A stretch of DNA of 64,000 nucleotides, taken from the NCBI GenBank assembly GCA_951406725.2, contig OX597814.1, positions 38,936,001 through 39,000,000 of the forward strand, read 5' to 3'. The notes under the pieces are model-generated. The model worked only from the letters and a program-made list of their open reading frames with translations. It was not told the origin of the DNA and ran no database searches. Each line of letters opens with the position of its first letter. Position 1 is the stretch's first letter. The stretch comes from Octopus vulgaris. Its lineage: Eukaryota. Both the position numbers and the translations under genes were made by a program. Positions 4,326-57,131 of the stretch are shown one piece after another.

Positions 4326-4922
4326 CACAAATACATACATGCACACTTATACATACCTATATACATTCAGATGTATGCATGTATCCATAATTTAGGAGCC
4401 ACAAATATTATAGTCTTCGATACAATAACACTCACCCACCAAACAAATAATAGAAGCCTGATATTATTGCGACTACTGGAATGCTAATTACAAGTATCAA
4501 TTTACTCATTCAGATGTGATGAGAGACTAAGAACGTACAGAAACATAAGTTGCTCAAATTCAAATGGTGCCAACGTAACAATTTCATAGTACACACACCT
4601 CCCGGTAAATTTGAAACTATTTCAGATCAATCAATCAAATCATATATTTATCATGTTTTACCTGTGCTAATTTAGTAGTGGTAGTAGTAGCAGCAGCAGC
4701 AGCAGCATTAGTAGTAGTAAAGTTATGCTCAACCAGGTTTATACCAGCCTCGGGAGTAAATGAAATATGAAATTGGTTTCAGATTACGAAGTGAGAACTC
4801 GAAATTGGGACAGCTACTTGAAATTGTAAATGTATGATGTCGACTTTACAATTTATAGCACTAAACAGGTTACATTGAATTTCAAGAGAAAATATTTTTT
4901 AAACAAATGTCTTTAATATATG

Positions 4923-5345
4923 GGCGCAGGTGTGGATGTGTTATAAGAATGTTGCCCTGCAATTACACAGGTCTGGGCGTAGTCCCTCTGCCTGTCAACT
5001 TGGGCAAATGTCTTCTACTCTACTCTCGGGCGACAAAAGAATTCTGAGAAGATTTGGTAGGATGAAAGAGAAAGAAGCCTATGGTGTGTATGTGTGTGTG
5101 CGTGCGTATGTGTGTGCATGCGCCAGTGCGTGCACTGTGTCTGTGATTATCCTTCCACTGCCGTTTCACAGTGGGTGTTAGTGTGCTCATGTCCCCGTAA
5201 CATAGTGGTTCGGCAAAGAGGAAATATAGAATAATTACCAAGCTTTAAAAAGAAGTAATGAGGTTGATTCGTTCGACTAAAACATTCTTCATGGCGGCAC
5301 CCCAGCACGGCCGCAGCCGAATGATTGAATCAAATAAAAGAAATA
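4923..5345 (+). mobile_element. SINE family A (tRNA-derived, OK/OR-like), degenerate full-length copy
   Basis: Head GGCGCAGGTGTGGATGTG, then CTTGGGCAAATGTCTTCTAC, internal (TG)n, GTCCCCGTAAC..GGTTCGGCAAAGAG and tail GGCGGCACCCCAGCACGGCCGCAG. Colinear with 24949-25349. Confidence 0.85.
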
Positions 5346-6006
5346 GAAAAGAATAGACATAAAAGAACCTTCTAGATAAATATCGAATATTTTCAGACCA
5401 AACATAGAGTGAAGCTGTAAGAATGTAAAAGAAAATGAAGACTGTTTGAATTAAATCTACGTTCTATGTAATATAATTTGAGAGGCAAATGAAAAGTATA
5501 TGGGCACATAGAAGATAAAGAAGTTATTGTTGATTTCATGGCAGATTTTGTGAATTTAAGAAATGTTTTCAATTTGCCGATGTTTACATGTATGTATGTT
5601 CATTCATGTACATAAACATGCTTATGATAGGAGTGTTTGTGTGAGTGTGTCTGTGTGTGTGTGTTTGAGCACGTGTGTGTGTATGTGTATATGGGCATTT
5701 GTGTATGAACGCGAGCACGCGTGAGTGTGCGTCTGTACGTGCACTTTTGTGCTTGTGGGTCTAAGCGTGTGAGTTTGCGCTTGTCCGTGCGTATTATCCT
5801 TCACATGTGCGCAAATGTGCGCGCGTGTGAGCTTGTGGTTGTCCGCTTACGTGTTTGTACTGGTCAAAAATAACTTTGATAATTTTATGTTTGTCGAAAA
5901 TAATTCTGATAAATTAAATTCGTTGTTCTGTGATAATTTTAGAAATTTCTGAGGGTAATTAACAAGTTATGCTCACGCATGCAAGCGCTGATATGTATGT
6001 ATGTAA

Positions 6007-6044
6007 AGGCGTAGGTGTGGCTGTGTGGTAAGTAGCTCCCTTAC
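6007..6044 (+). mobile_element. SINE family A 5' head, interrupted by an ORF1-only element
   Basis: AGGCGTAGGTGTGGCTGTGTGGTAAGTAGCTCCCTTAC matches the SINE head and stops abruptly. A probable 3' remnant lies at about 7720-7851 (GTTTACGTCC..., GAAACAAGTAA). Confidence 0.75.
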
Positions 6045-7370
6045 TTCACTACTGAAGAGTTCGCCTTTTTATACGCTCTGAAGTCACAGCGTTCTGCGTT
6101 GTGAATAATTGAAAAATTGAAGCACGACTACAGGTAAGGCGTTTGTCTTTCTGCGGAGCTTAGTGGACTCCATCGTTTTGTAATTAAACAAGTTTCACGA
6201 GCAAGGGTCTCCACTTGGTTCCAAATATTTGTTTGCCTATGGTCGTGCAAAAATACTCACTTTGTAGTGAGAATTGTGTTTTATGAGTATGTGTATCCAA
6301 AAAATTCTGAAAATTTTGACTCTCTTTTTGCTCTTCACAAGGAGGATTTACCATTCAGGCAAGTAGTAAGAGTTTAATGAAAATTGGAATTTATGTGCTG
6401 CGACGGAGTACTACGAATTGTGGATTACCTGAGTAACTGAACTGTGTTGCCAGTTGAACTGTCTTCCTTCCTTTTTTTTTTGATCTGTCTTTCTCGTCTT
6501 TCTTTTTGTTTTTTCATTGAATTTTATTTGGACATTTTTGGACTTTCTGTAGTTGGAACATTTTATTTTTATTTGATTTTTTAAAATTGGCAACAAAAAA
6601 TACCGCTTTAGAGTGGCGAATTGTGGACCCCAGAGAATGGCTTAAAAATTATACTGAGAGAGCGGTGGTGTTAAGGACCTACTCTTGGGTCCTTGAAACC
6701 ATCGCTGTGTTCTCTCAGTCTGAGACTGAGGAAGAGTTGGCAGAGTAGCTGCCAACTTTTAGATTTATCCGTAGGGGAGCAAGGTATGCAACTCTGTGTG
6801 TGATTTTTGACACCCCTAAGGAGGCACAATAATTTATGTGTCAACCAGTGGAAGGAAATAATATTTGTTTCGCCCTACATACGGTAGGCGAACATTAACG
6901 AGAGCTTGGGTTTATGGGCTGTCACCCGGAACTGAGCACGAGTAGATAGAGGAGACTATCTGCCGGGGTTTGGGTGGCATTAACACCAGGCTGTTAGATG
7001 TAAAGATTATGCCTGCGGCTGACTAGGTGATGTCAAAAGCTACCTTGACACTGTGGACCCAGTCAGCGGAAGATATGGTATTACCAGATTTTTTGAAACT
7101 GGCCGGTTCCAGACACCCGGTGATACTTGAAGGGACGCTCCCTACAAGTGTCACTAGTGCCTGGAAGCAGACCACATAAAGAGGAACTGCTCTAGGAACC
7201 AGGCAAGGGTACTGGAGTAGTTAATAGATCTCCCTGTTCCCCCAAGTGTGGCTCCTGATTCTCTAACGGTGGGAGAGGAAGCGAAAGTTGAGGAGGAGGT
7301 AAATCTTTCCAAAGGGAAAAATGAAAAAAGGTGGGCAAGATTGAGAGAGAGGGAGATAAAAGGAAAATAT
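6045..7370 (+). mobile_element. ORF1-only (gag-like, CCHC knuckle) non-LTR element, copy 1, decayed and 3'-truncated
   Basis: From about 6586 it translates to EWRIVDPREWLKNYTERAVVLRTYSW..ETIA..EEELAE, homologous to the ORF at 26335. Knuckle CH*CLEADHIKRNC at 7149-7190. Stops and frameshifts are present. Confidence 0.8.
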
Positions 7371-7439
7371 CCTACCTATTTGAATACTTTATGAAATATT
7401 TCGAAAAAATAAAAAAAATCATTTCATTTAATTTTTCTT

Positions 7440-7562
7440 CAATTCAGTTGTTTTTCTTGCTTTACTCTAGTTGGAAATGTCGAAAAGTCTGAAACCGGTA
7501 TTAAAATATATTATTCATGTTAAAATAACGTTAGCATTTTCTAATTTGTCTTATTTTCCTTG
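7440..7562 (+). mobile_element. Probable PLE terminal fragment with degenerate hammerhead-like motif
   Basis: TTGGAAA..GAAACCGGTA followed by an AT-rich tail, resembling the HHR at 36107-36146. Confidence 0.35.
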
Positions 7563-8246
7563 TACATATCAAGTCATGTGTTACAATTGAATCTTCTACA
7601 CGCACACACATACATGCCTGATTTTCTAAGCTTTAAGTCTTACATCCATATTTATATTCATTCCTATACATGCGGGCATGAGAGCGTATGTTTGCATGTG
7701 TGTGTGTTCGTGCGTGTGTGCGCTTCTGTGATACCACATGAAAGCCGGCGTCAGTTTGTTTACGTCCTTGTGACTTTGCTTGCTAATCGATATGTTCACC
7801 AACACCACTCAAAGCATTGCCTTTGTGAAGTTCGATGAATGAAACAAGTAATATATATATATATATATATTTATTATGTTAGTTTATCTCTGCCGTTCGG
7901 CTATAATGTTTGGTGTGTTAGATCAACGGAATTATTTAACGCCGATTTAGCGTCGAAACCCATTCGGATGATTTATGTTCTCTTAACGGAATTCACTGGC
8001 ACTAATATCTTAGTGTGAAACAATGCTGTACATTTTGAATTACAATCCGATACAAACAGCATGCTGGTGTCTATGAAGTTTATATCTCCAAATTACATAC
8101 CAGCGGTACTGTGGTTTTGAAGCTAACTTTTTAAACTTTAAGCGACATACACATGAATACCTACAAACAAATATACTTATTTACATACATGCATACATAC
8201 ATACACACGCATTTACGTGTGTATCTAAGTCTGTATGTATTTATGA

Positions 8247-9398: not shown

Positions 9399-9483
<85 letters not shown>
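8932..9483. repeat. Long imperfect (TA)n microsatellite (~550 bp)
   Basis: Directly visible; it is the source of the YI-repeat ORFs. Confidence 0.97.
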
Positions 9484-9485
<2 letters not shown>

Positions 9486-9641
9486 GATGGGCGTCTCTCA
9501 GTTTCCGTCTACCAAATCCACTCACAAGGCTTTGTTCGGACCGAGGCTATAGTAGAAGACACTTGCCCAAGATGCCAAGCAGTGGGACTGAACGCGGAAC
9601 CATATGGTTGGTAAGCAAGCTACTTACCACACAGCCCTCCT
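9484..9641 (-). mobile_element. SINE family A, 5' half
   Basis: Reverse complement reads GGAGGGCTGTGTGGTAAGTAGCTTGCTTACCAACCATATGGTTCCGCGTTCAGTCCCACTG...GAGTGGATTTGGTAGACGGAAACTGA. Confidence 0.9.
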
Positions 9642-12257: not shown

Positions 12258-12564
12258 TGTGTGGGGGCGTGCGTGTGTTTGTATGCGTATATATTTGTAT
12301 ATTTTATGTATTTCAGTTATGTGAAAGCGGCAATACTGGGGTACAAGCATAGATACTTTATTTCGAAAGATTCCACCCGATTGCTCTATAGGGTATTGGC
12401 CAGGTACCTATAGGGTCTATAGGCTGTAGGCCAGGTACCTACTTTAGTGATCTGATTTGCTGTGCTGCTAAGTTGTGGGGACGCAAACACACCAGCAACA
12501 CATTTCGAGCGGTGGTCTTGATAAAACATACACAGAAAGATACAAACACACACACGCACATGCA

Positions 12565-12624
<60 letters not shown>

Positions 12625-13342
12625 TATATTGCTGAATGTACAGAGTATAACGTTACGAACTACTAATAATTTCATACATTGGAGGTGTTTTACTACACAG
12701 CTGTTCTTAAAAACTCGCAGCGTATGAATCTTTTGGTAGTTCGTAATTACATTGTTCATATTAAACTATGTTTGCGTGTATTTGTGTGTGTTTGTGTGTG
12801 TTTGTTCGCGTGTGCGTTCGTGTGTGTGTTCGATTGTGTACATTCGTGAATGTGCTTGTGTATGTGTGTGTCTGTGCGTTTGCTTGAATCCCCTTACTAG
12901 TTCAGTAAAACAGACGGCCAGGATAAGCACCAGGCTTATAGAAAAAATTATATACAGGTGTAGATTCTTTCGACTAAAATTTTTTATGGTGGTGTAACAG
13001 CACCAGTACTTTTTGAGGATCTAGAACCTCATCCTGCAAGATGTATCAAATTCCTACTTGATAAAAGCGCTCTATCTGAGATTGTCAAGCGCCACGCCTA
13101 AGTCGCTGATATTATCAGGGGATGTATATAGAATAATTCTCCGATGAAATACCTTTGGATCAATTTCTGTAAATATATAATGTGTCGGAACTCGTAGCAT
13201 ACATAATGTCTACATTTATTATATAACTCACTTCCCTGTTTTAAACTTACGTCTTGTTTGACAGAACATGGTATGTATGCATCAGTATTTAAATATGCAT
13301 ATTTATATATGTAGATATGTGTACTCATGTTGTACATCTATG

Positions 13343-14789: not shown

Positions 14790-14988
14790 AGTATCCATTT
14801 CTGTACTTAAATAGAAAGGCCGAGTTGCATGCACCAGTGATGTCGAAACATATTTCCACAGCTGACTGAACTGGAGCAACGTGAAATAAATTGCCTTGCT
14901 GAAGAACACAATACACATTCCGGTCCAGGAATCGAACTCCCAATCTCAGGAGTGTTAGCCCGATGCTCTAACCACTGAGCCATGCACC
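14790..14988 (-). mobile_element. SINE family B (tRNA-derived)
   Basis: Reverse complement has A box TGGCTCAGTGG, B box GAGTTCGATTCC, then TTCAGCAAGGCAATTTATTTCACGTTGCTCCAGTTCA. Homologous to 49553-49840. Confidence 0.8.
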
Positions 14989-15186
14989 TTAACTACGATA
15001 TCTGCATAGATGCAAATACATATGCATGCTATTATCTGAATATCTGGAATTTCCACACTGCTCTTTTGTCGAAAGATACTGAGAGTCACTGTTAATTTTT
15101 GCATCAAGTTTCAAACGAGTGAAAAGCATGGATCTATGAAGCTATATCAATAAAACAATAATAATACATGGCAACATCCACAGACA

Positions 15187-17019: not shown

Positions 17020-18750
17020 AGGTATATCTTGCCACATTCGTGGATTTTGAAAACATTCGGCACGTGTGGAATAGCTGCGAACGTGTTTGCACTGATTTAA
17101 AACAAGACGCCTTGTTCGAAAACATGCCTTTCCTATAACAACAATCATTTAACCGAGGTAACAATCAAAATGGATATCTGTCAAGAAGACTCTTGTTCAC
17201 CTCTGTTATTTGTTGTAGCCTTGATCCCACTTTCCGTACTCCTACGAAAAGTCAGTGCGCACTGTCAACTGCGATAGAATGGACCACGTATCAACCACCT
17301 TCCCTTTATGGATGACTTAAAACTCTTCGCAAAAACAAAGTCTGAAATGGAGAGGCTGACTGAGACTGTGCAAATGTGAAACAAGGATATAGTGATGGAA
17401 TTCAGTATCTCGAAGTGTATGGGGCTTACGTCGGAGCGGGGAAAAAAAGTAAATTGTAGGGACATAGAATTGACAAACGGGGAGGTTATTGAAAACTCGG
17501 ATGATGATGCGAACCTGATATCTTGCACAAAGAAATGAAAGACAAGTTCATCACAGCATATTTCATGCGCCTTAAACTTCTCTTGAAATCAAAACTCTCC
17601 TCAAGAAACTTTGTGACTGCCATCAACATATGGGCGGTTGTTGTAGGCCGCTATAAGGAATTCATCCCGAAATGGACCCAAGCGGATAATTAACCAATTC
17701 AATCGCACTACCCGGATGACAATGACAATGTATGGTGCCCTTCACCCTAAGACAAATGTATACACGATCTATATGAAGAAGTGTAAACGTGGACATGGGC
17801 GGATTAACGTACGGGACTGCGTCAACAGTGAAAAAAGAACATGTCAGATTATTCGGTAAACAGCAAACCAAACATGCTACAGTATGCTGCTAATGCAGAA
17901 GAATTTAACAAAAATGGGCTCATGAATTCCGAGCATGGACAGTCAACAAGAAAAAAAGAACACTAATCCGCATGCAATAACATGGTGAGTTCTACCGTGA
18001 AGGTAACAAAGTATACGACGAGGAAGCATCATTGAAGTGGCTTAATAAGTGTGACCTAAAGAAGAAGAGTGAAAAGCCTAATTGCAAATAATATACACTA
18101 CACAAATGGAAGGGTCTCTAGAAAAGTTGTTGGAAGAAATTCGAAAGTGTTACTCATACTTTTATTGCTTGTGAAAATGTTGCGCAGAAAGAGTAGAAGC
18201 GTAGACACGACAAGGGAACCTAAAACCTCCACTGACTACTATGTCATAAGTATGGATATGAGGTTGGTACCAACATACACTGGAAAAGGGAATTGACGAA
18301 AAGAAGAAATTTAGCACCGAAGGCCAGATATCGGAACGTTTAGGAGGGCCAAACAAGAGAGCGTAATAATTGACCTAACAATAATGCCAGGAGTTCAACA
18401 TATTATCATGATAAAAAGAGAAGCGTTTGATATATATAGACATGATCACTAAGATGTGGCAGCTACGAGAATCAAAGGTAAAGGCTAACCCTATTGACAT
18501 TGGAGGATTTGGTCCAATACAACCTAATCTGAAAAAAAATATGGCTGATAACTTTAGAAATACCCTACAATATAGAAGTATTGCAAAAGACGACATTAAT
18601 TGGAAGTGCACTCATATTGCGTAAAGTACTGTAGACCTGAGTTCAACTGACAACTTGTACAAAGCACCTGTAGACACAATATATTCAATAAACAATCTCA
18701 TATGTTCTATACTGTGCGGCGTCTATAATAACAATAATAATGATGATGAA

Positions 18751-18859: not shown

Positions 18860-19495
18860 AACAAATAAACAAAATAATTATAGACAACCTGCTTAACAAC
18901 AATGTATAAAATGCTAATATCTGACTTGAGTGAATATCCCTTTTTTTTATTAATAGAAAGTGGCATTTTGCCTAATGGGCAACAAGGAAGTAAACTTGGG
19001 TCATATGGTTCTAAAGATCAGTTACTCCTCAATAAGATGATCTTAGAAGATTGTCACAAACGACACAAAATGTTGGATAGACTATGCAAAAGCTTTTGAT
19101 AGTCTACAAATGTATAAAATAGGACCTAATCTGCGAAACATCTTATCTGTAAATAAAAGATCATGGAGAACTACACTGACTTTGAACAGTGACAATGAAT
19201 CGCTTAATGCTGGAGATGTAAGAATTTCATGTGGCATTTTCCAGCTCGATTCTCTATCATCGTTCCTGTTTTGTCTCTCCTTCATAGCTCTCTCGAAACT
19301 GCTCAATAATGTACAATACGGTTATAAAATGTCTGATAAAAATATAAATCACCTGAGTTACATGGATGATATAAAGCTCTTTGCAGCAAATGACCAACAA
19401 CTACAGGCCATACTAGGGACTGTTAAACAATTCAGTGTTGTGATCAGTATGGAAATTGGCCTCGATAAAAGTGCAAAAGCTAGATTATAAATGAC
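18860..19495 (+). pseudogene. Second R4/Dong-like RT fragment (different family)
   Basis: TCLTTMYK..QQGSKLGSYGSKDQLLLNKMILED..DYAKAFDS..GIFQLDSLS..INHLSYMDDIKLFA..GLDKSAK; RT motifs including YMDD. Confidence 0.85.
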
Positions 19496-24940: not shown

Positions 24941-24948
24941 CTCTCTCT

Positions 24949-25349
24949 CTGGCTGTGTGGTAAGTAGCTTGCTAACCAACCACATGGCTCCGGGTTCAGT
25001 CCCACTGCGTGGCATCTTGGGCAAGTGTATTCTGCTATAGCCCCGGGCCGACCAATGCCTTGTGAGTGGATTTGGTAGACGGAAACTGAAAGAAGCCTGT
25101 CGTATATATGTATATGTATATATGTATGTGTGTCTGTGTTTGTGTGTCTGTGTTTGCCACCCTAGCATTGCTTGACAACCGATGCTGGTATGTTTATGTC
25201 CCCGTCACTTAGCGGCTCGGCAAAAGAGACCGATAGAATAAGTACTGGGCTTACAAAAATAAATCACGGGGTCGATTTGCTCGACTAAAAGGCGGTGCTC
25301 CAGCATGGCCGCAGTCAAATGACTGAAACAAGTAAAAGAGTAAAAGAGT
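24949..25349 (+). mobile_element. SINE family A, near-complete reference copy
   Basis: A box TGGCTGTGTGG, B box GGTTCAGTCCC, body, (TG)n linker, and tail GGCGGTGCTCCAGCATGGCCGCAGTCAAATGACTGAAACAAGTAAAAGAG with a repeated end. Confidence 0.92.
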
Positions 25350-25617
25350 ATATATATATATATATACAGAGAATGTGAGAGAGAAAATGAGAGAAATGAG
25401 AGAAAGTTATGTGGTGGGCGTTTGTGCGTGTTTTTAAGTTTGCGTGAAATTATGTAAAATATTTCTTTTCCTGGGGTTATATTTATCAAATCAATTATAG
25501 CTTCGCTTGGGATTGCTCATTTCAGACATGAAGTTAAAATAAAGATGAAACATAAATAATTGCATTGTCGATGATTGAAGTTTATATGGATATTTCATAG
25601 CAAAATAGATATATAAT

Positions 25618-25650
25618 CAGGAGTGGCCGTGAGGTAATAAGCTTGGTTCT
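25618..25650 (+). mobile_element. SINE family A head, split from its body (28240-28562) by two tandem insertions
   Basis: CAGGAGTGGCCGTGAGGTAATAAGCTTGGTTC. The SINE resumes at 28240 with AGAAGCTTGCTTCCCAACCACATTATTCCGGGTTC. Confidence 0.8.
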
Positions 25651-27766
25651 ACTGCGCATGTGCGAATAATTGTGGCGTTTGGCACCAAAGCGAAGAGACG
25701 TGCTCTTGAAGCCGTCTCGAATTGTAAATTTTTGAAGCTCCACTGTAAGGTAAGATTCTGTTTTTTGGGTCCAGTGGTAATTTTTGTTGAGAATTTTTTC
25801 TTGCACAGGCAGGAATCCTACTGGTTTCAGAATTCCGATCTACCTGCATGGAGCGAATATTTTTTGCCACTTAATTGTGAGAATTTTGGGGGGCGTATTA
25901 GTCTTCCTATTTAGTTGTTTATGTTAAGGGAATATTGTTTTCCCTTAATTATGAGAATTGTTGTGTGGAGGATATCGCACCTACTAAAAATTTGTTCACC
26001 TTTTGAAGAATTTGAAAATAATTGTGAGGACCGCTGTTTTGGGGGTGCCTTCGAAGATTGAACAGTTTGTATACCAGTTTTTGTGGAAGTTGAGTTCCAG
26101 TTGTGGCGTTCCTGGTTCAACCTAGGCCGGGAGTACTGAATGGCCGGAATATTTTTTGTGTTTCTGAACTATTGATTTCATTCGTCTAAATTTATCTCAC
26201 TTTCTTTTTTTTGTGAATTGTTTCCTTTTCTCCTTTCCATTTTATTGACTTTCTTTTGATTTCTTTTTTCTTCTCTCTTGTTAAGATTTATTTTGAGCTA
26301 TTTTCGAACCGATAAAAAAAGGGGAAATATAGCAATGAAAAAAGAAAAAGATATGGAGTGGGAGATTGTACAATCAAAAAAGTGGTTGAAAGACCGTGAA
26401 GATAGGACGGTGGTGTTGAGAACCTACTCCAAGTCACCCGAGACCATCGCCCTACCCGAAAAGACCGCAATTGAAAAGGAGTTGGCAGAGAATTTGCCAA
26501 TAATTAAGTTCATTTCCAGGGACGCCAAACACGCAACGGTGTGGTTGCTATTTTATACCCCTGCGAGTCAGCCTTTGGACGGCGAGGAATTTTTTTTCTT
26601 CCCACGTATTGTGGGAAGAGGTTGTCGAAAGTTTTTGTTCTGCGTGTTGCCACCCGGAATAAAACTCGAGTGGATAGAGGAGACTATCCGCCGGGGTCTG
26701 AGTGACAGCGGAGCTAGGCTCATTAATGTGAATGTTTTTCCTGCGGTTGATTGGGTTGGGTCAAATACTGTTTTGAGCCTTTGGACTCAATCATCCAATT
26801 TGTTTTTTCCAGTTCTGTTTTAAATGGACGGTTGCAAGCATCTAGTGTTTCTTGAGGGCCGCTCTCCCAGGTGTCGTCGGTACCTGGAGTTTTGCCATAT
26901 AAAGAAAAACTGTCCCCAGGAACAAAATAAGGTCTTGGAGCATTTGAGTGAGACCTCTGTAGAAGAGAAAATGAAGGCGGCCGAGGAGGCGGAGGACTCC
27001 TCAAACAGGTGCCGCAAGAGGAGGAAGGTTCGCACTGAAGGATCCTAGGGATGAGGATGGGGAGGCAAATCTCTAGGTCACGGAGGAGACGCACCCTCCC
27101 TCAGTTGAAAATAATAAATAGGAAGAGAAACGAGACATTGCCGGCAGTCGGAGATATAGTACCGGATTGTCCTGCAACTACGGCGGTTGGGGTTGTGCCA
27201 CCGACAGGAGAAGTGTGCCGCCAACGGAAGAATTGGATATCCTGTCCCCAGAGGAAGACGAATTATTGATCTTCTATAGAGGCGGAGAGGTTGAACAGGT
27301 GGTGGTAAAGCACCATAAGGGAGCACCTTTATCTTTCACACAGGATCCCGTATGGTCTCCGCAGATAGCTGTGGAGGTCATAACGTTTGACGTGGAGTTT
27401 AGGCTGGAGGGGCTCAATGACAAATATCGCTTGAACCCGGGCGACGCCGACACGGAACACTCTTTAATCTTGAATGAGGCGTAGAGGATGGAAGAGGATG
27501 CGGGTACAACCGATGTTAAGGGCGAGTTACAAATTGTGGCACTGTGACACAATCATTTGATAACCGGCACTTGGCCTTCTTCTTTCTAAACTCCCGGCTG
27601 TTAACGCGGTCTGCTCTGCAGGCGGCTAGATATTTGACTGGGGGACCGGAAGGAGGAGAAGGGAAAATTGATAGTGTATTTTTGATGCTTGATTGACTTT
27701 TTGATTTTTATGTAACAAAAAAAAAACTGTGATTGTAAGGCCCCCATGGCCAATTTGATAAAATAA
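25651..27766 (+). mobile_element. ORF1-only (HAL1-like, probably Tx1/L1-related) retroelement, copy 2, apparently complete
   Basis: About 680-bp 5' UTR, a broken ORF from 26335 to about 27484 with knuckle CRRYLEFCHIKKNC (26872-26913), then a short 3' UTR ending ATAAAATAAA and a target duplication. No APE or RT sequence recognised. Confidence 0.8.
26335..27484 (+). pseudogene. Gag/ORF1-like nucleic-acid-binding protein, disrupted
   Basis: Consecutive ORFs 26278-26823, 26824-27048 and 27167-27484. Degenerate CCHC knuckle followed by a charged/basic region. Paralogous to 6586-7350. Confidence 0.75.
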
Positions 27767-27781
27767 AGAAGCTTACTTCCC

Positions 27782-28239
27782 GGAGGGAGGAGTCCGTGCC
27801 CTGGACAGAGGACGAGGAGTGGCATTCGAAGGTGACTACGAAGATCATATTGGATGTCGCTATGGTCAGGGTTATGAACACCTCCTCAAAGAACGTGTTT
27901 GCCTAAGGGAAGCGTAAGCCTGGTCTGGGAGGAGGGGCTTTGTGTATAGTGTTTATATATATATTACATGTAATTATTGAAATATGTTGTTGTTTGTAAT
28001 GGACTGTTAAGTCCAAAAATTGAAAAGTTGTAAAAGTTGTAATACCTCCTTTAATACCTCCTTTTGTGTTTGGTTTTAAAGAACTATGTTTTAGAGAAGC
28101 AGAAGTCGGTGGGCGCTTTTTGTTTACTCCCATCCTTATCATCTTTCTTTCATTATCATTCATTTGATTAATGTCCTTGTCCTGCACGCAAAGATACTTT
28201 TCTCTATGTACTGTCTTTATGGAATATGTATTGAAGTAG
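27782..28239 (+). mobile_element. Second, 5'-truncated insertion in tandem at the same SINE site
   Basis: Bounded by AGAAGCTTACTTCCC (27767-27781) and AGAAGCTTGCTTCCC (28240-28254). Its reading frame VPWTEDEEWHSKVTTKIILDV weakly resembles LSFTQDPVWSPQIAVEVITFDV of the upstream ORF1 C-terminus. Confidence 0.65.
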
Positions 28240-28411
28240 AGAAGCTTGCTTCCCAACCACATTATTCCGGGTTCTTTCCAACTGCGTCTCACTTCCGTCT
28301 CACTTCTGTCCCACTTCTACTTCAGCCTCGGACCGACCAAAGACGTGTGAGTGGATATGGTATATGGAAACTCAAAGAAGCCCGTTGTATATACATACAT
28401 ACACAAGCGCG

Positions 28412-28503
<92 letters not shown>

Positions 28504-28562
28504 GAGAGAGAGGAAGAGGGTTATGTATTTCTATGTCTGCTTGTCCACCCACCATCGCTTGG
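28240..28562 (+). mobile_element. SINE family A body (continuation of the 25618 head)
   Basis: CCCAACCACA..CCGGGTTC, CCTCGGACCGACCAAAG..GTGAGTGGATATGG..GGAAACTCAAAGAAGCCCG, CCACCATCGCTTG. Confidence 0.85.
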
Positions 28563-30399: not shown

Positions 30400-32620
30400 C
30401 CAAATATTAACCACACAAAAATGCAACAGGATCACGTACGCCAATATTCCAGGGACATGGGGTGAAGTTTGACTAGCTCAAATGCGTTTTTATGATAGTA
30501 AGCCTGGCAAACATGTGTCCTTGCCGAAGATAATAAACGTAAACATAAGCAACATACATGTACAACGTCTGCTCTCAGGGGAAAGCTACAAATACATCGG
30601 ACAGGATGAGAGTCTCAGCCAAGATGGACTCATCATAAGAAGTGGACAAGGCGGTTAAAAACTTTTATCAAGTGCACTCAGCACATTTGCAATGACATTA
30701 CTATCGCCTATCTCTGGCCCTCTTCAATGGGCAATACAAGTACTGCATAAAATTGGTGTTAGAACTCGGAAGTTCCTCTGTATAACAGGAAATTTCAGTA
30801 CCAGAGGAGATGTAGACAGGCGATATTGCCCAAGCAAGGAGGGAAGCCATTGTCTCCAATATTTGTTGATGTCATATGAAGCACATATTATGATACTAAA
30901 ACGACATTTGAATTAGTTGAAAGGAATCAGTAACGAACTTGACCAAGTTTATGACTGTGAAATTAGCAACATAACTAATAAAATAGCTAATGAACATGAG
31001 GAAAAGCACAAAATAAAAATAGAGATCTCTCCGAAAGGACCATTGGCAACAGAATAAACTGGAAAGTTGGGCAAGTTCACTTGGATTATAGTCACTTAAT
31101 ATATATCAGGTGATCCAGTAAGTTCTGTCCAAATTTTGAATAACGAAAACAAGTGATCAAATACTATATTCAATCGAAATTTAATCATCAATGTACTTCC
31201 CTGATTATCTCTGACTTGCTTTCATGTATTTGCAATCTTTTTAATCCCATCAATGTAAAACTCTTTTGTTTTCAAAACGAAGACCTCTGAAATGTCAGTT
31301 TCGACATCCTCCTGGCTTGCGATAGTTATGTCCCCCAAATGATTCTGTAAACTACGAAACCTGAAAGAGCAAGGTCGTGAGAATAAGGTGGATGAGGAAT
31401 TTTTCCCACCCAAGCTCTTCGATCTTCTGTGATCTTTGCAGTGTTAGGTCGCGTATTGTCCTGCTGAAACATCACTCCTTTTCGATTCCCTAAAGCGTGT
31501 CTTTTTCTCTTCAAAGCTTCGTTCAAACGCTTTAATTGCTGACAGTAGACTTCAGCATTGATAGTTGCATTAGATGGGAACAATTCAAAGTGAATTAATC
31601 CTTTGCAATCCCACCAGATAAAGAGAAGAAACTTTTTCCCATGAAGTTTCCTTCTCGGTTGTGGTTGAGCGTTTCCTTTTTACTAATCCACTGTTTACGG
31701 CGTTTAACATTTCGATAGACGATCCATTTTCGTCACCAGTCACAACACTATCCTAAAAGGGTGAAATAAGCTTCCGAGAATGGAGAGAATAGCAGATGTC
31801 AACTCGGGATTTGCGGTTGCTTTCGGATATTTCATGAGGCACCCATTTTCCAAGTTTAGGAACCTTTCCTAGTTGTTGAGGATGATAATGAACAGTTGTA
31901 TGGTTTGAACAAAGCTTTATTGCCAATCCTTCAACTGATGATCTAAGATTTTCTTCAAGTAAAGCCCCAAGGAGCTTTTCATCTAACTCAACTGGACACC
32001 CAGTTCAATCTTCATCTTCAAGTCTCAAATCTCATCTTCTGAATTTTGCAAACCATCTTCTGCAAGTTCTTTCATTCAAGCATCCTTTCCTATAACCTGA
32101 GTGTATATGTTTCGAGTGTCTTCGGCTGCAGAGCTTCCTTTTTTGTACACATAATGCATTATGTGCCTCAAATGGTCTTTGGATATTTCCATGTTAGAAA
32201 GTGTTTAATCAAAAAAAATTTAATTCTATTACGCCGTAAAATAATATTTGATTAGTTTAAAAGTACACAAATGAATAAAAATAATTTTAAATTTCATTAG
32301 ACATTCTAAAAAAAACATTAAATTTCATTCAATTTTAATAAAAGTAAAATCTTATGTGATGAACTGATAGTAAGTACCTCGAGAAATGACAGACCGTAGA
32401 AGGAAATGCTAATATCAAAAGCTAGTTTATTGACAAGTTTATGACATACCACTTCGAAGGTTATATCCATGCAATTCGGAAACAGGAGATTCTTATGAAG
32501 TAACTACAGTATAAAATGATTGGTAGATAACAAAATGAGGTTGCACAGAGCCAACGACTTTATTGCCAAATGTGAAAGAATGCTTTCCAGATATTATCTT
32601 CATATGAGGCATTAGACGGA
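30400..32620 (+). mobile_element. R4/Dong-like LINE fragment interrupted by a mariner (31104-32372)
   Basis: ESYKYIGQDE and VRTRKFLCITGNFSTRGDVDRRYCPSKEG (cf. DVDRLY.PRK.GGRG) before the mariner. DKFMTYHFEGYIHAIRKQEI after it. Confidence 0.7.
31104..32372 (-). mobile_element. Mariner transposon, about full length (~1.27 kb), decayed
   Basis: Motifs LGKWVPHE, VTGDE.WIVY, TINAEVYCQQLKRL..QDNTRPN and HPPYSHDLALS. Degenerate TIRs TATCAGGTGATCCAGTAAG / CTTATGTGATGAACTGATA. Confidence 0.9.
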
Positions 32621-36280: not shown

Positions 36281-36742
36281 TTAATTTCTCTGTGTCAGTA
36301 TGTTCGGATGGTGGAGTCTGGGTTTGTACTTTTCAATGAAGAATGTTTCCTTGTTCAGTCTCATTTGTGTTGATGATCCGAAAGCACATTGGTAAAATGG
36401 GAAGATTAAAAATTGTGGCAGTAGTTGCTTTGCGCATTTCTCAATGTGCTCACTAAAAGGTATCATTCTATATTCTGGGAATGCAATCTGTTGTCGATGC
36501 AGTGTGCATCTGCGCCTGAGTGATAGTCCCGTGGAACCCACGTAGTCTTGGTGGCAGCCCGAGCATTTAATAACATAAATTATGTTTTCAGAGGCACAAG
36601 TAAAGTTAGATTTGATCTTAAATTTCTGTCCCTCTTTAAAGAATAATTCTGATCCTTCCAATAGGTTAGGACATGTTGCACAGTTCGATCTACCACATTT
36701 TTTTACTTTTGCATCTGGGGTTGTGATTTCTGTTGCACTCAC
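36281..36742 (-). CDS. PLE C-terminal Cys-rich linker plus GIY-YIG endonuclease (partial, uninterrupted frame)
   Basis: CGRSNCATC linker, FTCASENIIYVIKCSGCHQDYVGST..LRRRCTLH..SEH..RLNKETFFIEKY. Confidence 0.85.
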   Translation of the reverse strand: MSATEITTPDAKVKKCGRSNCATCPNLLEGSELFFKEGQKFKIKSNFTCASENIIYVIKCSGCHQDYVGSTGLSLRRRCTLHRQQIAFPEYRMIPFSEHIEKCAKQLLPQFLIFPFYQCAFGSSTQMRLNKETFFIEKYKPRLHHPNILTQRN

Positions 36743-37048
36743 TACCTCCCCTTATTTAGAAATCTCCTGGAAATAAAAACAACGATAATTCCATGCAATA
36801 TAAACATAACGTCACAAGAAATTTGAAAAGCTAAACGCGACACCGGTAATTTCTTTAAAAATTTTAAAATTATGTCATTTTAAGGAAAGGGAAAAAAATG
36901 TTTCCAATATTCTCCAAATATATATATTTTTTAACATTTAAGCCTTCTGTCGTTTTTTCACACTTTACTATTTTCTTATATATATATATATATATATATG
37001 GATAGATAAAACTTACATAGAAAAGGATGCGCGGCGTTCGATCATATA

Positions 37049-41609: not shown

Positions 41610-43440
41610 CACGGATCGGCTGAAAAGTTCTCAGGCTGGCAAAATTACCATCATAGAATGTGTCCAAATCAGGTTTATTTTTTAATATAATCCCGCTTGG
41701 AGTTCACACACTTCTTCCAACGGCTGCAATCCTTCCAACGGCTTCTCCCAAATGGCTGCAATCCTTGCAGCCATTTTCGAAAGAGTTTATATCCTATTGG
41801 TCAAAGAATCAAATACGACGTAAAAATATTTCGGTACTGATCCATAGCCAAGTGTTTCTCTAATCTAGATGAACAAAGGATAGTCAGATTGAGCCAAATC
41901 AGTAGAATAGTGAGGGTGACAAACTAATCCAAAAACACAATCGCCCACTAGAACCAGTGAAAGCAAGAACTTGTGTGCTGAAGCAATGTTGTGGTGAGAC
42001 AGGACACGTTTTGTCAGTTTTCCTGACATCACCGAGGTGTGCAATACTCTATAGTGACGACGTGACTCTCTTTGAAGACAATCAAAACTACATTTCTTTT
42101 GCAACCCAAAACATGAGGCTGGGGAGGAAGGGTGTTTGCACTGCATGGATTGTATCTTTGTTTCTGGCACAACTTGGGTTCGCAAACGTTCGAGGAAATC
42201 AGTTGGATCTCAGAAAAATAATGTTAGCTTTTTTTCCCATGATGTGATCAGCCTAGTGCACATTTGATCAGGTGTTAGAAAAAGTGGGATCTATAAGGCA
42301 GAAATTTTCATTATGGAAAATCCGTTGTGTAGAATGTTCTCATTTCCTTCTCTCACGAAATATGTTAATGGCATTGGCAATTTGATTCATAATCAATACA
42401 TTATCATTCATCACCATATGATGAACACTGTCAATGTTTCCTTCGGTGGTGACAGTTGCAGGATTTTCAAACATTAGTTTATCTTCAAGACCCTCCCTTC
42501 CCTTTCTATATTCAGCAATTCCCTTTTGCACTGAGATTTTGAGCTCTCATAAGGAGGCGAGTGTAGGTTCCATCCAACCGCCTCTCAAGCTTCTTTGATA
42601 ACGTCCAGGTTTCTGAACCATATAGTAGAATTGGTTCGACTGTGGCTTTGAAGATTTCAAGTTTGAAGTCTCTACTTAGATTTGATGACCAGATCTTATG
42701 CATGTCATTACAGGCTGACCAGGCCAGGGTATGGCCTCGTCAGCCTGTAATGACATGCATAAGATCTGGTCATCAAATCTAAGTAGAGACTTCAAACTTG
42801 AAATCTTCAAAGCCACAGCCGAACAAATTCTACTATATGGTTCAGAAACCTGGACGTTATCAAAGAAGCTTGAAAGGCGGTTGGATGGAACCTACAATCG
42901 CCTCCTTATGAGAGCTCAAAATATCTCGTGGAAGTGCCATCCAACCAAAATGCAAATATATGGGAAATTACCACCTGTGTCATCTCTTGTGAAAGGTAGG
43001 AGAGTCCAGTTTGCTGGACATTGTTGTAGAGCTGAAAAAGAATTAATTTCTACTCTTCTCCTCTGGAAGACATCTACTGGCAATATCAGAGGGCGCACAC
43101 TCTCCTACCCTGATGTAATCTCCAGGGATACAGGCATCCAGAAACAGGACCTCCGTAATGCCATGATGGACCGTGAAGTCTGGCTTAGCATGGTAAATTC
43201 CATTGTCTCTACCACGGTCGAACAATGATGATGATGAAAGCTGTGGCTTCACCCGCTAATGTAGCAACCATATCAACATGAATGTCCTTAGGGGTTACCG
43301 TGTTTTCCAGGTATATGTACCACCACTATTCCAAATTTTGTCTATTTCCCAGAAAAGTGGCTTCTAGTAACATTTCAACATATCTGTCAGATATGAGTTT
43401 ACCTGGAATGATACGATGTAGTCATAATTAAGTGGAGTTG
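41610..43440 (-). mobile_element. Mariner transposon, decayed, interrupted by an RTE insertion
   Basis: TIR CGGCTGAAAAGTTC at 41617. HPHYSTDLAQSDY and QKGIAEYRKGREGLED..PATVTTEGNIDSVHHMVM. N-terminus PKDIHVDMVATL resumes at 43237-43350. Related to 23690-24625. Confidence 0.88.
42533..43236 (+). mobile_element. RTE-clade LINE 3' fragment with fold-back inverted 5' duplication and (TGA)n tail
   Basis: ORF 42731-43228 contains ILLYGSETW..RRVQFAGHC..LLW. 42533-42726 is the reverse complement of 42732-42925. Confidence 0.9.
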
Positions 43441-49192: not shown

Positions 49193-49388
49193 TAATCGTA
49201 TTAATATTAATATAAATGACCAGGTAATAACCTTCTATAGTACTCTTGATAGGTTTGTAACTACTGAATGAATGATGATACCATAACTTCCAGATTTTCC
49301 TTTAACGCATACGTAGAGGTATATATACTTTTGTCAGTATACACACGCCCGCAAGCCTACGAACACATACAAACACTCACACACATCA

Positions 49389-49495
49389 CTGGCTGTGTGG
49401 GAAGAAGCTTGCTTCCAAACCCTATGTTTCTGTGTTCAGTCCCACTGTGTAGCAACTTGGGCAAATGACTTCTACTAAATCCTCGGGCCAAGCAA
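49389..49495 (+). mobile_element. SINE family A 5' fragment with an intact (empty) target site
   Basis: TGGCTGTGTGGGAAGAAGCTTGCTTCCAAACC..GTTCAGTCCCACTG..CTTGGGCAAATG. Confidence 0.8.
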
Positions 49496-49552
49496 AACAC
49501 ACCCATATACACATATATATCTATGCATGCTTATATATATATATATATAATC

Positions 49553-55198: not shown

Positions 55199-56489
55199 AA
55201 ATGTATACACGATAGCGATTTATGTAGGCAACCACAGCATATAGGCAAGATTTGTGCATCTTTAGAAATAGGTAAAATACTATATCCATACATGCATGGA
55301 TACATTGTCACGCACATGACACAAACACATTTATATATCCATAGATAGGAACACGTTTGCGATTTTGGCACGCTCACGTATATGTAAATATATGCATGTG
55401 TGTTTGCGCAAGGTATATTTTCTTAATAATTGCTCAAACTTGACTTTTAATGAAATCAGTTAATCTAATAAAGCAGAAATTGTAATTTAAATTCCATCTC
55501 AGCAGCAATGATATTACCAGAATAGTAATAGCATTATATAACTGCATTACTATTTCTTTTATTAATGGTTGTTAATTTTTGCTTATTGTGCAGTTGATGT
55601 TTTTTGTGACCCACTCAACATAAGTTCATTTAGTTATTACAGAATTATACGATCATTATCCTATTTTTGTCACCAAGCGTGATGTATTTTGAGTATCTGT
55701 ATTACATATTGTCCGCACTAAAATTTGTTAACTTTGCAGACTGTAGGAGAAGCCATGATATGTCCTTCCGATATAAATACTATTCAATACGCCATTTTGA
55801 ATATATTAATATTTTTGTGTTCCAAGCTATCTCTCATTTCACTAAATCGCTTTCTGAAGTTACCAACTGAGCCAATACACAGAACTATTGTTATGAGATT
55901 GACATTATATACTACTTTGCTTACTAAGGAATTACAATGAAGGTGCACAAATCTGTATTTTGATGTAACAGTTAAGACGGCCACATGACTCAAGGAATGC
56001 TAAGATTGTTATTTTTTTAATTTTACGATATCATTTGTCCTTTATTCGCTGTAAAATTTATAAGTTTATTATTTTTAGTATTATTAGTATTGTACATATT
56101 TCGACGAGACTTATCCTGGTGGTATTTGTATTAATAGTGGTAGTAATGTTTATAGATATAGAGCAGGGTCTACTCACAGAAATATATAGAGAATATAGAT
56201 GTGTTTTGTTTCCACACGTCATAAAGCAACAATTTGGTATATTCCGCTCTGATAAGATATTAGAATATTCGCGTGTCATAATATTATACTAGTATTTTGC
56301 ATGGCATTTTGTATGGAAGGAGGAATGTTTCGCTGCATCTTTTTGTTTTACAACTTCTATCCTTTCCGAAATATATAGCATACGATTTGCAATATTTCTA
56401 TTCAAAAATATATAGGAATAGTTATTCCTATGAAATGTATTGCTCATATATCCACTCAGTGACACAAAGAGGTACGCACACAAATACAT

Positions 56490-57122
56490 GTATAAGAACA
56501 TTCAGAAACAGAGATAAGGAAACCATGATGGTCCTCTGGCGGACTTTCGTCTTCAGTCGCCTGGATTACTGCTCACAGCTATGGTCACCCAACAGTGTAA
56601 AATTAACAGCGGACCTTAAAGCAATCCAGAGAAGATTCACAAAGAAGATCGTCTCTTTGCAACAGCTCAGCTACGGGGAAAGGTTGAAACAGCTAAGACT
56701 CTACTACCTGGAGAGAAGACGGGAGAGGTATGCAGTAAAATATGTCTGGAAGATCCTGGAAGGAATTGTGCCAAATTTTGGCATTGCAATCTACACCAAT
56801 GCTAGAACGGGACGACACTGCATATGCAATCACGCTTCAGGACCAGCTTCAGCAACAGCCTGGGTTTCAAGGGCCCACAGCTTTTTAATATTCTCCCAAA
56901 GAGTATGAGGTACCTGCACAATGTAGATGTAGCGGTTTTTAAATCAAAGCTAGACATATTCCTGTCCCAAATGAACCTACATCGCGGCAAGAAGTGCAAA
57001 TGAGAGTAGCTGCATCAAACTCCATTTTTCAACAAGTGCCACATATCAGACGATGTTCTTCGTAATAACAGTGTAGCACAAACCGGCGGTGCCTCAGCAT
57101 GGTCGCAGCTCTGAGCTGAAAC

Positions 57123-57131
<9 letters not shown>
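56490..57131 (+). mobile_element. CR1-like LINE 3' end
   Basis: IRTFRNRDKETMMVLWRTFVFSRLDYCSQLWSP..AIQRRFTKKI..LSYGERLKQLRLYYLERRRER, then FKSKLDIFL, a 3' stem-loop and an A tail. Confidence 0.88.

Follow-up and report, generated by a model that had tools for sequence, protein, structure and literature searches.

Two diverged copies of an ORF1-type retroelement joined to the head of a common SINE in Octopus vulgaris

The host SINE and its two interrupted copies

The window, a 64-kb stretch of the Octopus vulgaris genome, is AT-rich, microsatellite-laden animal DNA in which copies of one SINE are dispersed. This SINE, which probably belongs to the octopus SINEs described by Ohshima and Okada (1994), is about 400 bp long, has no ORF and ends in simple repeats, and the window contains six of its heads together with further tail pieces. 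Four heads are uninterrupted (4923, 9640 on the minus strand, 24948 and 49385) and two are cut (Table 1). An earlier note on this DNA had named three of the uninterrupted sites, which were recovered at 24948, 9640 (minus) and 49385; the decayed site at 4923 is a fourth. Between the 24948 and 9640 copies the identity is 90%. Two SINE variants can be distinguished, T26/A36 in the head of element A and in the 9640 and 24948 copies, and A26/C36 in the head of element B and in the 49385 copy.

Headless, decayed SINE 3′ parts were additionally seen at 12300-12592 (−), 12776-13003 (+) and 57084-57129 (+), the first two being divergent and 180 bp apart. A tRNA-like Rfam match at 14920-14989 (−; 29.9 bits, gathering threshold 29), which was not called by ARAGORN, is perhaps the head of another SINE family. 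Open frames picked by eye at 19047-19490, 42719-43228, 56282-56908, 36281-36751, 31326-31679 and 41865-42209 are presumably RT/LINE C-terminal fragments, a GIY-YIG (Penelope-type) piece and mariner transposase pieces.

Table 1. Coordinates of the two elements, their SINE heads and the control SINE copies in the window.
Feature	Position	Strand	Basis or remark
Uninterrupted old, decayed SINE upstream of A (control)	4922..5344	+	67-68% to 24948 copy
SINE head, SINE positions 1-37 (A-box-like part; variant T26/A36)	6008..6044	+	nhmmer E 3.3e-4
Element A, 5′UTR	6045..6598	+	global alignment with element B 5′UTR
Element A, ORF1 (dead)	6599..7369	+	matches P0002 residues 6-242 (tblastn)
Element A, probable 3′UTR remnant	7370..7432	+	weak match, collinear with element B 3′UTR
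AT-rich DNA, ~250 bases, no feature assigned	7433..7683	.	
(GT)n and decayed remnant of a SINE 3′ part, oriented like the head of element A, then (TA)n	7684..7853	+	profile match and controls
Uninterrupted SINE 5′ half (control)	9456..9640	-	
Uninterrupted young SINE (control)	24948..25345	+	
SINE head before element B, SINE positions 4-36 (variant A26/C36)	25617..25649	+	weak alone (E 0.45)
Element B, 2.1 kb	25650..27767	+	5′UTR, ORF1, ~100 nt 3′UTR
Target-site duplication of B, SINE positions 25-38 repeated	27768..27781	+	12-bp duplication with 5′ side
Insert B2, no family assigned, stacked at same SINE site	27782..28240	+	joints at SINE positions 38 and 25
Host SINE resumes at position 25	28241..28561	+	E 7.7e-27
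Uninterrupted SINE head (control)	49385..49498	+	

Element A is a dead, nearly full-length ORF1 element lying behind a SINE head. The head, detected by nhmmer with a SINE profile built from four other copies, begins at SINE position 1 behind a decayed (AT/GT) tract, as other SINE copies in the window begin behind microsatellite-like tracts, and is identical at 23 of 26 positions to the 24948 copy and at 24 of 26 to the 9640 copy (88-92%). It stops at 6044, and the earlier claim that this point lies within 1-2 nt of the breakpoint of element B was correct, the joints being at SINE position 37 in element A and position 36 in element B (25649), a difference of 1 nt. The exact joint of element A can be shifted by a few bases; if a 4-nt insertion is allowed in the alignment it falls at position 36, and under this gapped reading the variant difference between the two heads falls from two positions to one. 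The same 6-base motif is found at or just behind the joint in both elements.

The 5′UTRs of A and B align end to end with a global score of 291, which none of 200 block shuffles reached, and both elements are full-length at the 5′ end. The diverged ORF1 homologue that had been recognised behind the head by its peptide motifs is indeed present, with 61% nucleotide identity between A and B over 799 columns (E 2e-56). Compared to residues 6-242 of the Octopus sinensis protein P0002, the ORF1 of element A (6599-7328; E 1e-65) contains two frameshifts and six stops; it carries one CCHC-type knuckle near 7146-7190 and, as in P0002, a KRKI-like end at 7358-7369. The probable 3′UTR remnant is A-rich and stops where the terminal hairpin of B begins, and its match to B is weak, as 5 of 1000 shuffles and 5 of 848 control windows (that of B itself included) reach the score. 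A target-site duplication was looked for on the 3′ side of element A and none was found, and SINE positions 25-75 were not detected downstream of the element (best score reached by 74 of 500 shuffles). DNA sequencing runs under five species labels share words with positions 5990-7450 (shares 0.05-0.90), no RNA run being among those listed; these shares are left out of the evidence considered here.

Further downstream, the SINE tail at 7726-7853 is real. Its score of 69.4 was reached by none of 500 shuffles and by 9 of 1988 control windows, all nine of which lie on other SINE tails. The earlier note had placed a probable SINE 3′ remnant at about 7720-7851. The remnant exists, but its origin from the same SINE copy as the head was not confirmed, as the tail is identical to the 24948 copy in only 29 of 43 and 29 of 41 columns (~67-70%) compared to 88-92% for the head. 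Being far more decayed than the head, the tail is possibly derived from a different and older SINE copy.

The insertion of element B into the SINE is clean, with a 4-bp terminal hairpin, an AATAAA end, a 12-bp target duplication and the SINE resuming behind it. Its ORF1 starts at 26335 and has one stop in the first 235 codons, and from the KRKI-like ORF1 end to the AATAAA at 27767 there are about 100 nt. Approximately 600 nt of element B (27040-27669, +) separate its CCHC region from its KRKI-like end, a stretch that A and P0002 do not have; a 120-codon open stretch within it (27122-27484) gave no Pfam match. The stacked insert B2 has a length of 459 bp; its own hairpin and A-rich stretch are located around 28000-28027, some 210 nt ahead of its 3′ joint, and it may consist of two pieces. 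A link between the tail of element B and the B2 hairpin lacked significance (132 of 500 shuffles). At a distance of 0.3-0.7 kb upstream of either element lies a further SINE copy on the same strand, an old one in the case of A and a young one in the case of B.

ORF1 and its relatives

A tblastn search with P0002 yielded two copies in the 64-kb window, A and B, a further match over 19 residues (E 0.33) being noise. Two database relatives of ORF1 were obtained, both from Octopus sinensis: P0002 (XP_029652367, locus LOC115225585), an intact protein of 281 aa and the only strong relative (E 1e-47), and a 44-residue piece in P0003. P0003 is a gene model probably assembled as a chimera of several repeats, since 17841-17951 (+) of the window matches its first 36 residues (57%). 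Element B is closest to P0003 (31/40 residues) and element A is close to neither, with 19/40 to B and 25/40 to P0002; as B groups with P0003 and A closely with neither, several lineages exist.

In a feature comparison (Atlas), P0002 scored 0.90-0.93 to CCHC, RRM and ZCCHC3-type clusters with a structural TM of at most 0.46, a result that is not Tx1-specific. RRM and CCHC features are the layout expected of a non-LTR ORF1. The zf-CCHC match of P0002 in Pfam is below the cut-off (E 0.058), and an AlphaFold model of P0002 calculated on a 2-row alignment reached a pLDDT of 35.6. The best match in a sequence search of the PDB had an E of 0.73. No longer relative of P0002 was present among 1831 candidate proteins, and a word search returned P0002 alone among 684 candidates; for P0001, the word search confirmed none of 21 candidates and no Pfam family was detected. 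A search for ORF1 copies in metagenome contigs by protein gave 284 pattern matches, none of which was confirmed, and the SINE-head motif was found in none of the metagenome, viral and prokaryote genome contigs searched.

Behind ORF1, no relevant Pfam family (RT, APE endonuclease) was detected in any of the three frames of B (27040-28239) or of A (7140-7741). Since such an ORF2 match is missing and the tail of B follows so shortly after its ORF1, both elements look like ORF1-only (HAL1-like) elements as judged from their sequences, an internal deletion of longer elements being also possible.

Collinear AG/GTAAG donor-like sites are located in the two 5′UTRs, at 6134 in A and 25750 in B (+90 and +101), and represent two of the five such plus-strand sites in the 64 kb. 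A pyrimidine tract accompanied by an AG, 40-50 nt ahead of ORF1, is likewise seen in both UTRs (6552 in A; 26285, acceptor-like, in B). In A, the tract ending at AG 6552 consists of 76% pyrimidines over the wider tract, with AG 6552 lying outside the list of 13-of-18 pyrimidine sites. These donor- and acceptor-like sites point to a possible intron in the 5′UTR of A and B. Three protein accessions are recorded for the one locus of P0002, which fits alternative UTRs; the gene model of P0003, in contrast, seems to continue through the sequence preceding ORF1 and lends no support to an intron.

Probable independence of the two joints

ORF1 was under purifying selection while the subfamilies diverged. 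The dN/dS ratio between A and B, determined over 169 of 175 aligned codons (six were dropped for stops), was 0.29 (dS 1.29, dN 0.37; bootstrap 0.15-0.46), with 58, 44 and 84 differences at codon positions 1, 2 and 3, and none of 900 neutral simulations gave a ratio as low as 0.29. The earlier note had suggested a dN/dS test between subfamily consensuses for purifying selection on ORF1, and the low ratio between A and B argues that the ORF1s split as functional lineages and not by decay after one duplication. The two heads are identical at 21 of 30 positions compared to 38.5% identity at ORF1 synonymous sites (P 5e-4), and either one has kept 80-92% similarity to intact SINE copies. The heads are thus younger than the ORF1 split, and as they also represent different SINE variants the joints look independent.

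Comparison of the flanks of A and B revealed only microsatellites and one upstream SINE each (67% alike), and the spacers could not be aligned (best E 0.18). A recent segmental duplication, already dismissed in the earlier note, is accordingly rejected. Given the 90% similarity of the 24948 and 9640 copies and the unalignable spacers, the upstream SINE pair is not read as a duplication either. Nevertheless, A and B lie on one strand within 20 kb, a clustering that independent insertion leaves unexplained. One ancient insertion might have been duplicated locally, or an ORF1 gene family domesticated, the copies then diverging as host genes while their flanks decayed. The common strand, the short distance and the SINE upstream of each element would fit such an origin; purifying selection and a possible intron would suit a host gene, one intact protein only is on record, and at a dS of ~1.3 neutral flanks would be unalignable anyway, so that the flank test has little power. 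However, the heads are far less diverged than the synonymous sites and differ in variant, the 24948 SINE is too young, the spacers show no similarity, and element B possesses a fresh-looking tail and duplication. We therefore regard a local duplication as quite improbable, and independence of the two insertions, as read from the sequences and in agreement with the earlier note, is well supported.

Proposed insertion at the SINE head and comparison with known systems

Both ORF1 copies in the window (2/2) are joined, in one and the same orientation, to a SINE head at position 36 or 37, and two of the six SINE heads are interrupted. For element B, the proposed insertion into a SINE holds in full, as the tail, the duplication and the resuming SINE are all in place; for element A it holds for the 5′ joint alone, which is not accompanied by a duplication. 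Targeting of the SINE head is thus likely, on the basis of two copies, one of them one-sided. The further proposal that the specificity is common to the subfamilies rests on one copy per subfamily in the 64-kb window.

L1 endonuclease nicks at the consensus TT/AAAA, which the nick site resembles, and a relaxed L1-type endonuclease might on two occasions have cut a common repeat by chance at a T/AAGAAG-like site; SINEs are abundant, and the pair was selected in retrospect out of a large scan. However, the window contains 126 TTAAAA sites and 558 generic T(A/T)AARR sites compared to six SINE sites, and the chance of one insertion falling within 2 nt of one of the six sites in the same orientation is 2.3e-4, a value that applies to each further insertion. 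With a third insert stacked at the site of element B, coincidence appears very improbable.

As judged by eye, the insertion site is located between the A-box-like and B-box-like motifs of the SINE. The true target might accordingly be a tRNA gene, or another multicopy gene, ancestral to the SINE head, with the SINE insertions being collateral, and Tx1-clade elements are described as targeting multicopy RNA genes such as U2 (PMC4494074). Neither ARAGORN nor Rfam gave a tRNA match for the SINE head, though, and SINEs, which make up 11.6% of the O. vulgaris genome (PMC13282606), would outnumber tRNA genes. We consider this explanation improbable.

Element A shows neither a target duplication nor a SINE middle, and the tail that follows it is more decayed than its head. 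The head may thus be a part of the element itself, forming its 5′ end and acquired by 5′ transduction from a master copy residing in a SINE or by a template jump onto SINE RNA. A would then have landed outside a SINE, and the tail at 7684-7853 would be an older, unrelated one. That both elements are full-length at the 5′ end is in line with this, as is the presence of U1/U2-derived 5′ heads in certain Tx1 families of crocodilians (PMC4494074). On the other hand, the joint of A coincides to 1 nt with the top-strand joint of B, whereas the template jumps described in PMC4494074 need not match and vary by up to 22 nt. A transduced head would still require that an ancestor had inserted at this site, the head begins, like other copies, with SINE position 1 behind a tract resembling a microsatellite, and by eye no duplication flanks head and element together. 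Capture of the head is therefore unlikely, although less so than a tRNA-gene target.

We favour as the probable explanation that A and B, both dead, represent two subfamilies of a short non-LTR retroelement of the ORF1-only (HAL1-like) type and were inserted separately, and that this non-autonomous family was moved into the SINE head by a target-specific Tx1/L1-type enzyme using target-primed reverse transcription. The joints of element B show a bottom-strand nick at SINE position 24/25 with priming on the A-rich 3′ end of the element, and a top strand joined at positions 36-38, which gives a duplication of 12-14 bp. Element A shows of this pattern the top-strand joint alone, at position 37; what is missing of its 3′ end, together with the duplication and the middle of the SINE, would later have been deleted or replaced. 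A sequence-specific endonuclease and reverse transcriptase would have been supplied in trans by an autonomous Tx1/L1-type partner encoded outside the window. Since insertion would split the A-box of the SINE from its B-box, the target may represent an abundant, harmless landing site. In a bolder version, which we think unlikely, an old octopus ORF1-only family (subfamilies at dS >1) with a spliceosomal intron in the 5′UTR would home to a site in the commonest SINE that is bounded by its A and B boxes, via a borrowed sequence-specific endonuclease, disabling the SINE promoter, and would use spliced RNA for ORF1 protein and unspliced RNA for mobilisation.

If the arrangement holds genome-wide, the SINE promoter would join the fixed targets of non-LTR elements, the specificity would have been kept across a deep subfamily split, and an uncharacterised sequence-specific endonuclease would be expected in octopus. 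The combination of an ORF1-only architecture, a fixed target and a retained intron would, if true, be a further twist. In the literature searched, which did not extend to Repbase and most subscription papers, no report of a SINE-targeting element in octopus was found. Thirteen recently active L1-Tx1 families are described for O. vulgaris in PMC13282606, the main text of which contains no occurrence of 'target' or 'nested', while its repeat library may include the families described here.

HAL1 (half-L1) elements are non-autonomous, ORF1-only derivatives of L1 (PMC5753468). A and B resemble them in having a 5′UTR, an ORF1 kept under selection and no ORF2 match, and, in B and probably in A, a short 3′UTR and an A-rich end. 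In contrast, HAL1 elements are described from mammals and derived from L1, with no fixed target stated in the account of PMC5753468. Tx1 families and SINEU with U1/U2-derived 5′ heads (PMC4494074) likewise have a small-RNA-like head directly before the element, but the head of B is plainly a target, as the SINE resumes behind it.

The closest parallel is provided by Tx1-clade LINEs that insert into other transposons, as listed by Kojima (2015, PMC4494074, citing Christensen 2000 and Kojima and Fujiwara 2004): Tx1L in Tx1D (piggyBac), Tx1-Mar in Mariner-N4_AMi, Tx1-9_AMi in Harbinger, and Tx1-8_Crp and Tx1-4_AMi in LTR elements. Several Tx1 families share one target, and the target criterion applied there is one target type in >20% of the flanks of a family (PMC4494074). 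The octopus elements differ in having a SINE head as target, in showing no ORF2, in their host and in being represented by two cases only. They appear to share with these LINEs a fixed position and orientation in an interspersed repeat, the use of one target by several families, stacked insertions and, in B, an A-rich 3′ end with a target-site duplication. A and B work like clients of a target-specific Tx1 element, and since ORF2 was looked for and not found they are not classed as Tx1 members but at most as a non-autonomous client. As the targeting of other transposons by Tx1 elements is already known, the octopus SINE represents a useful new example more than a surprise.
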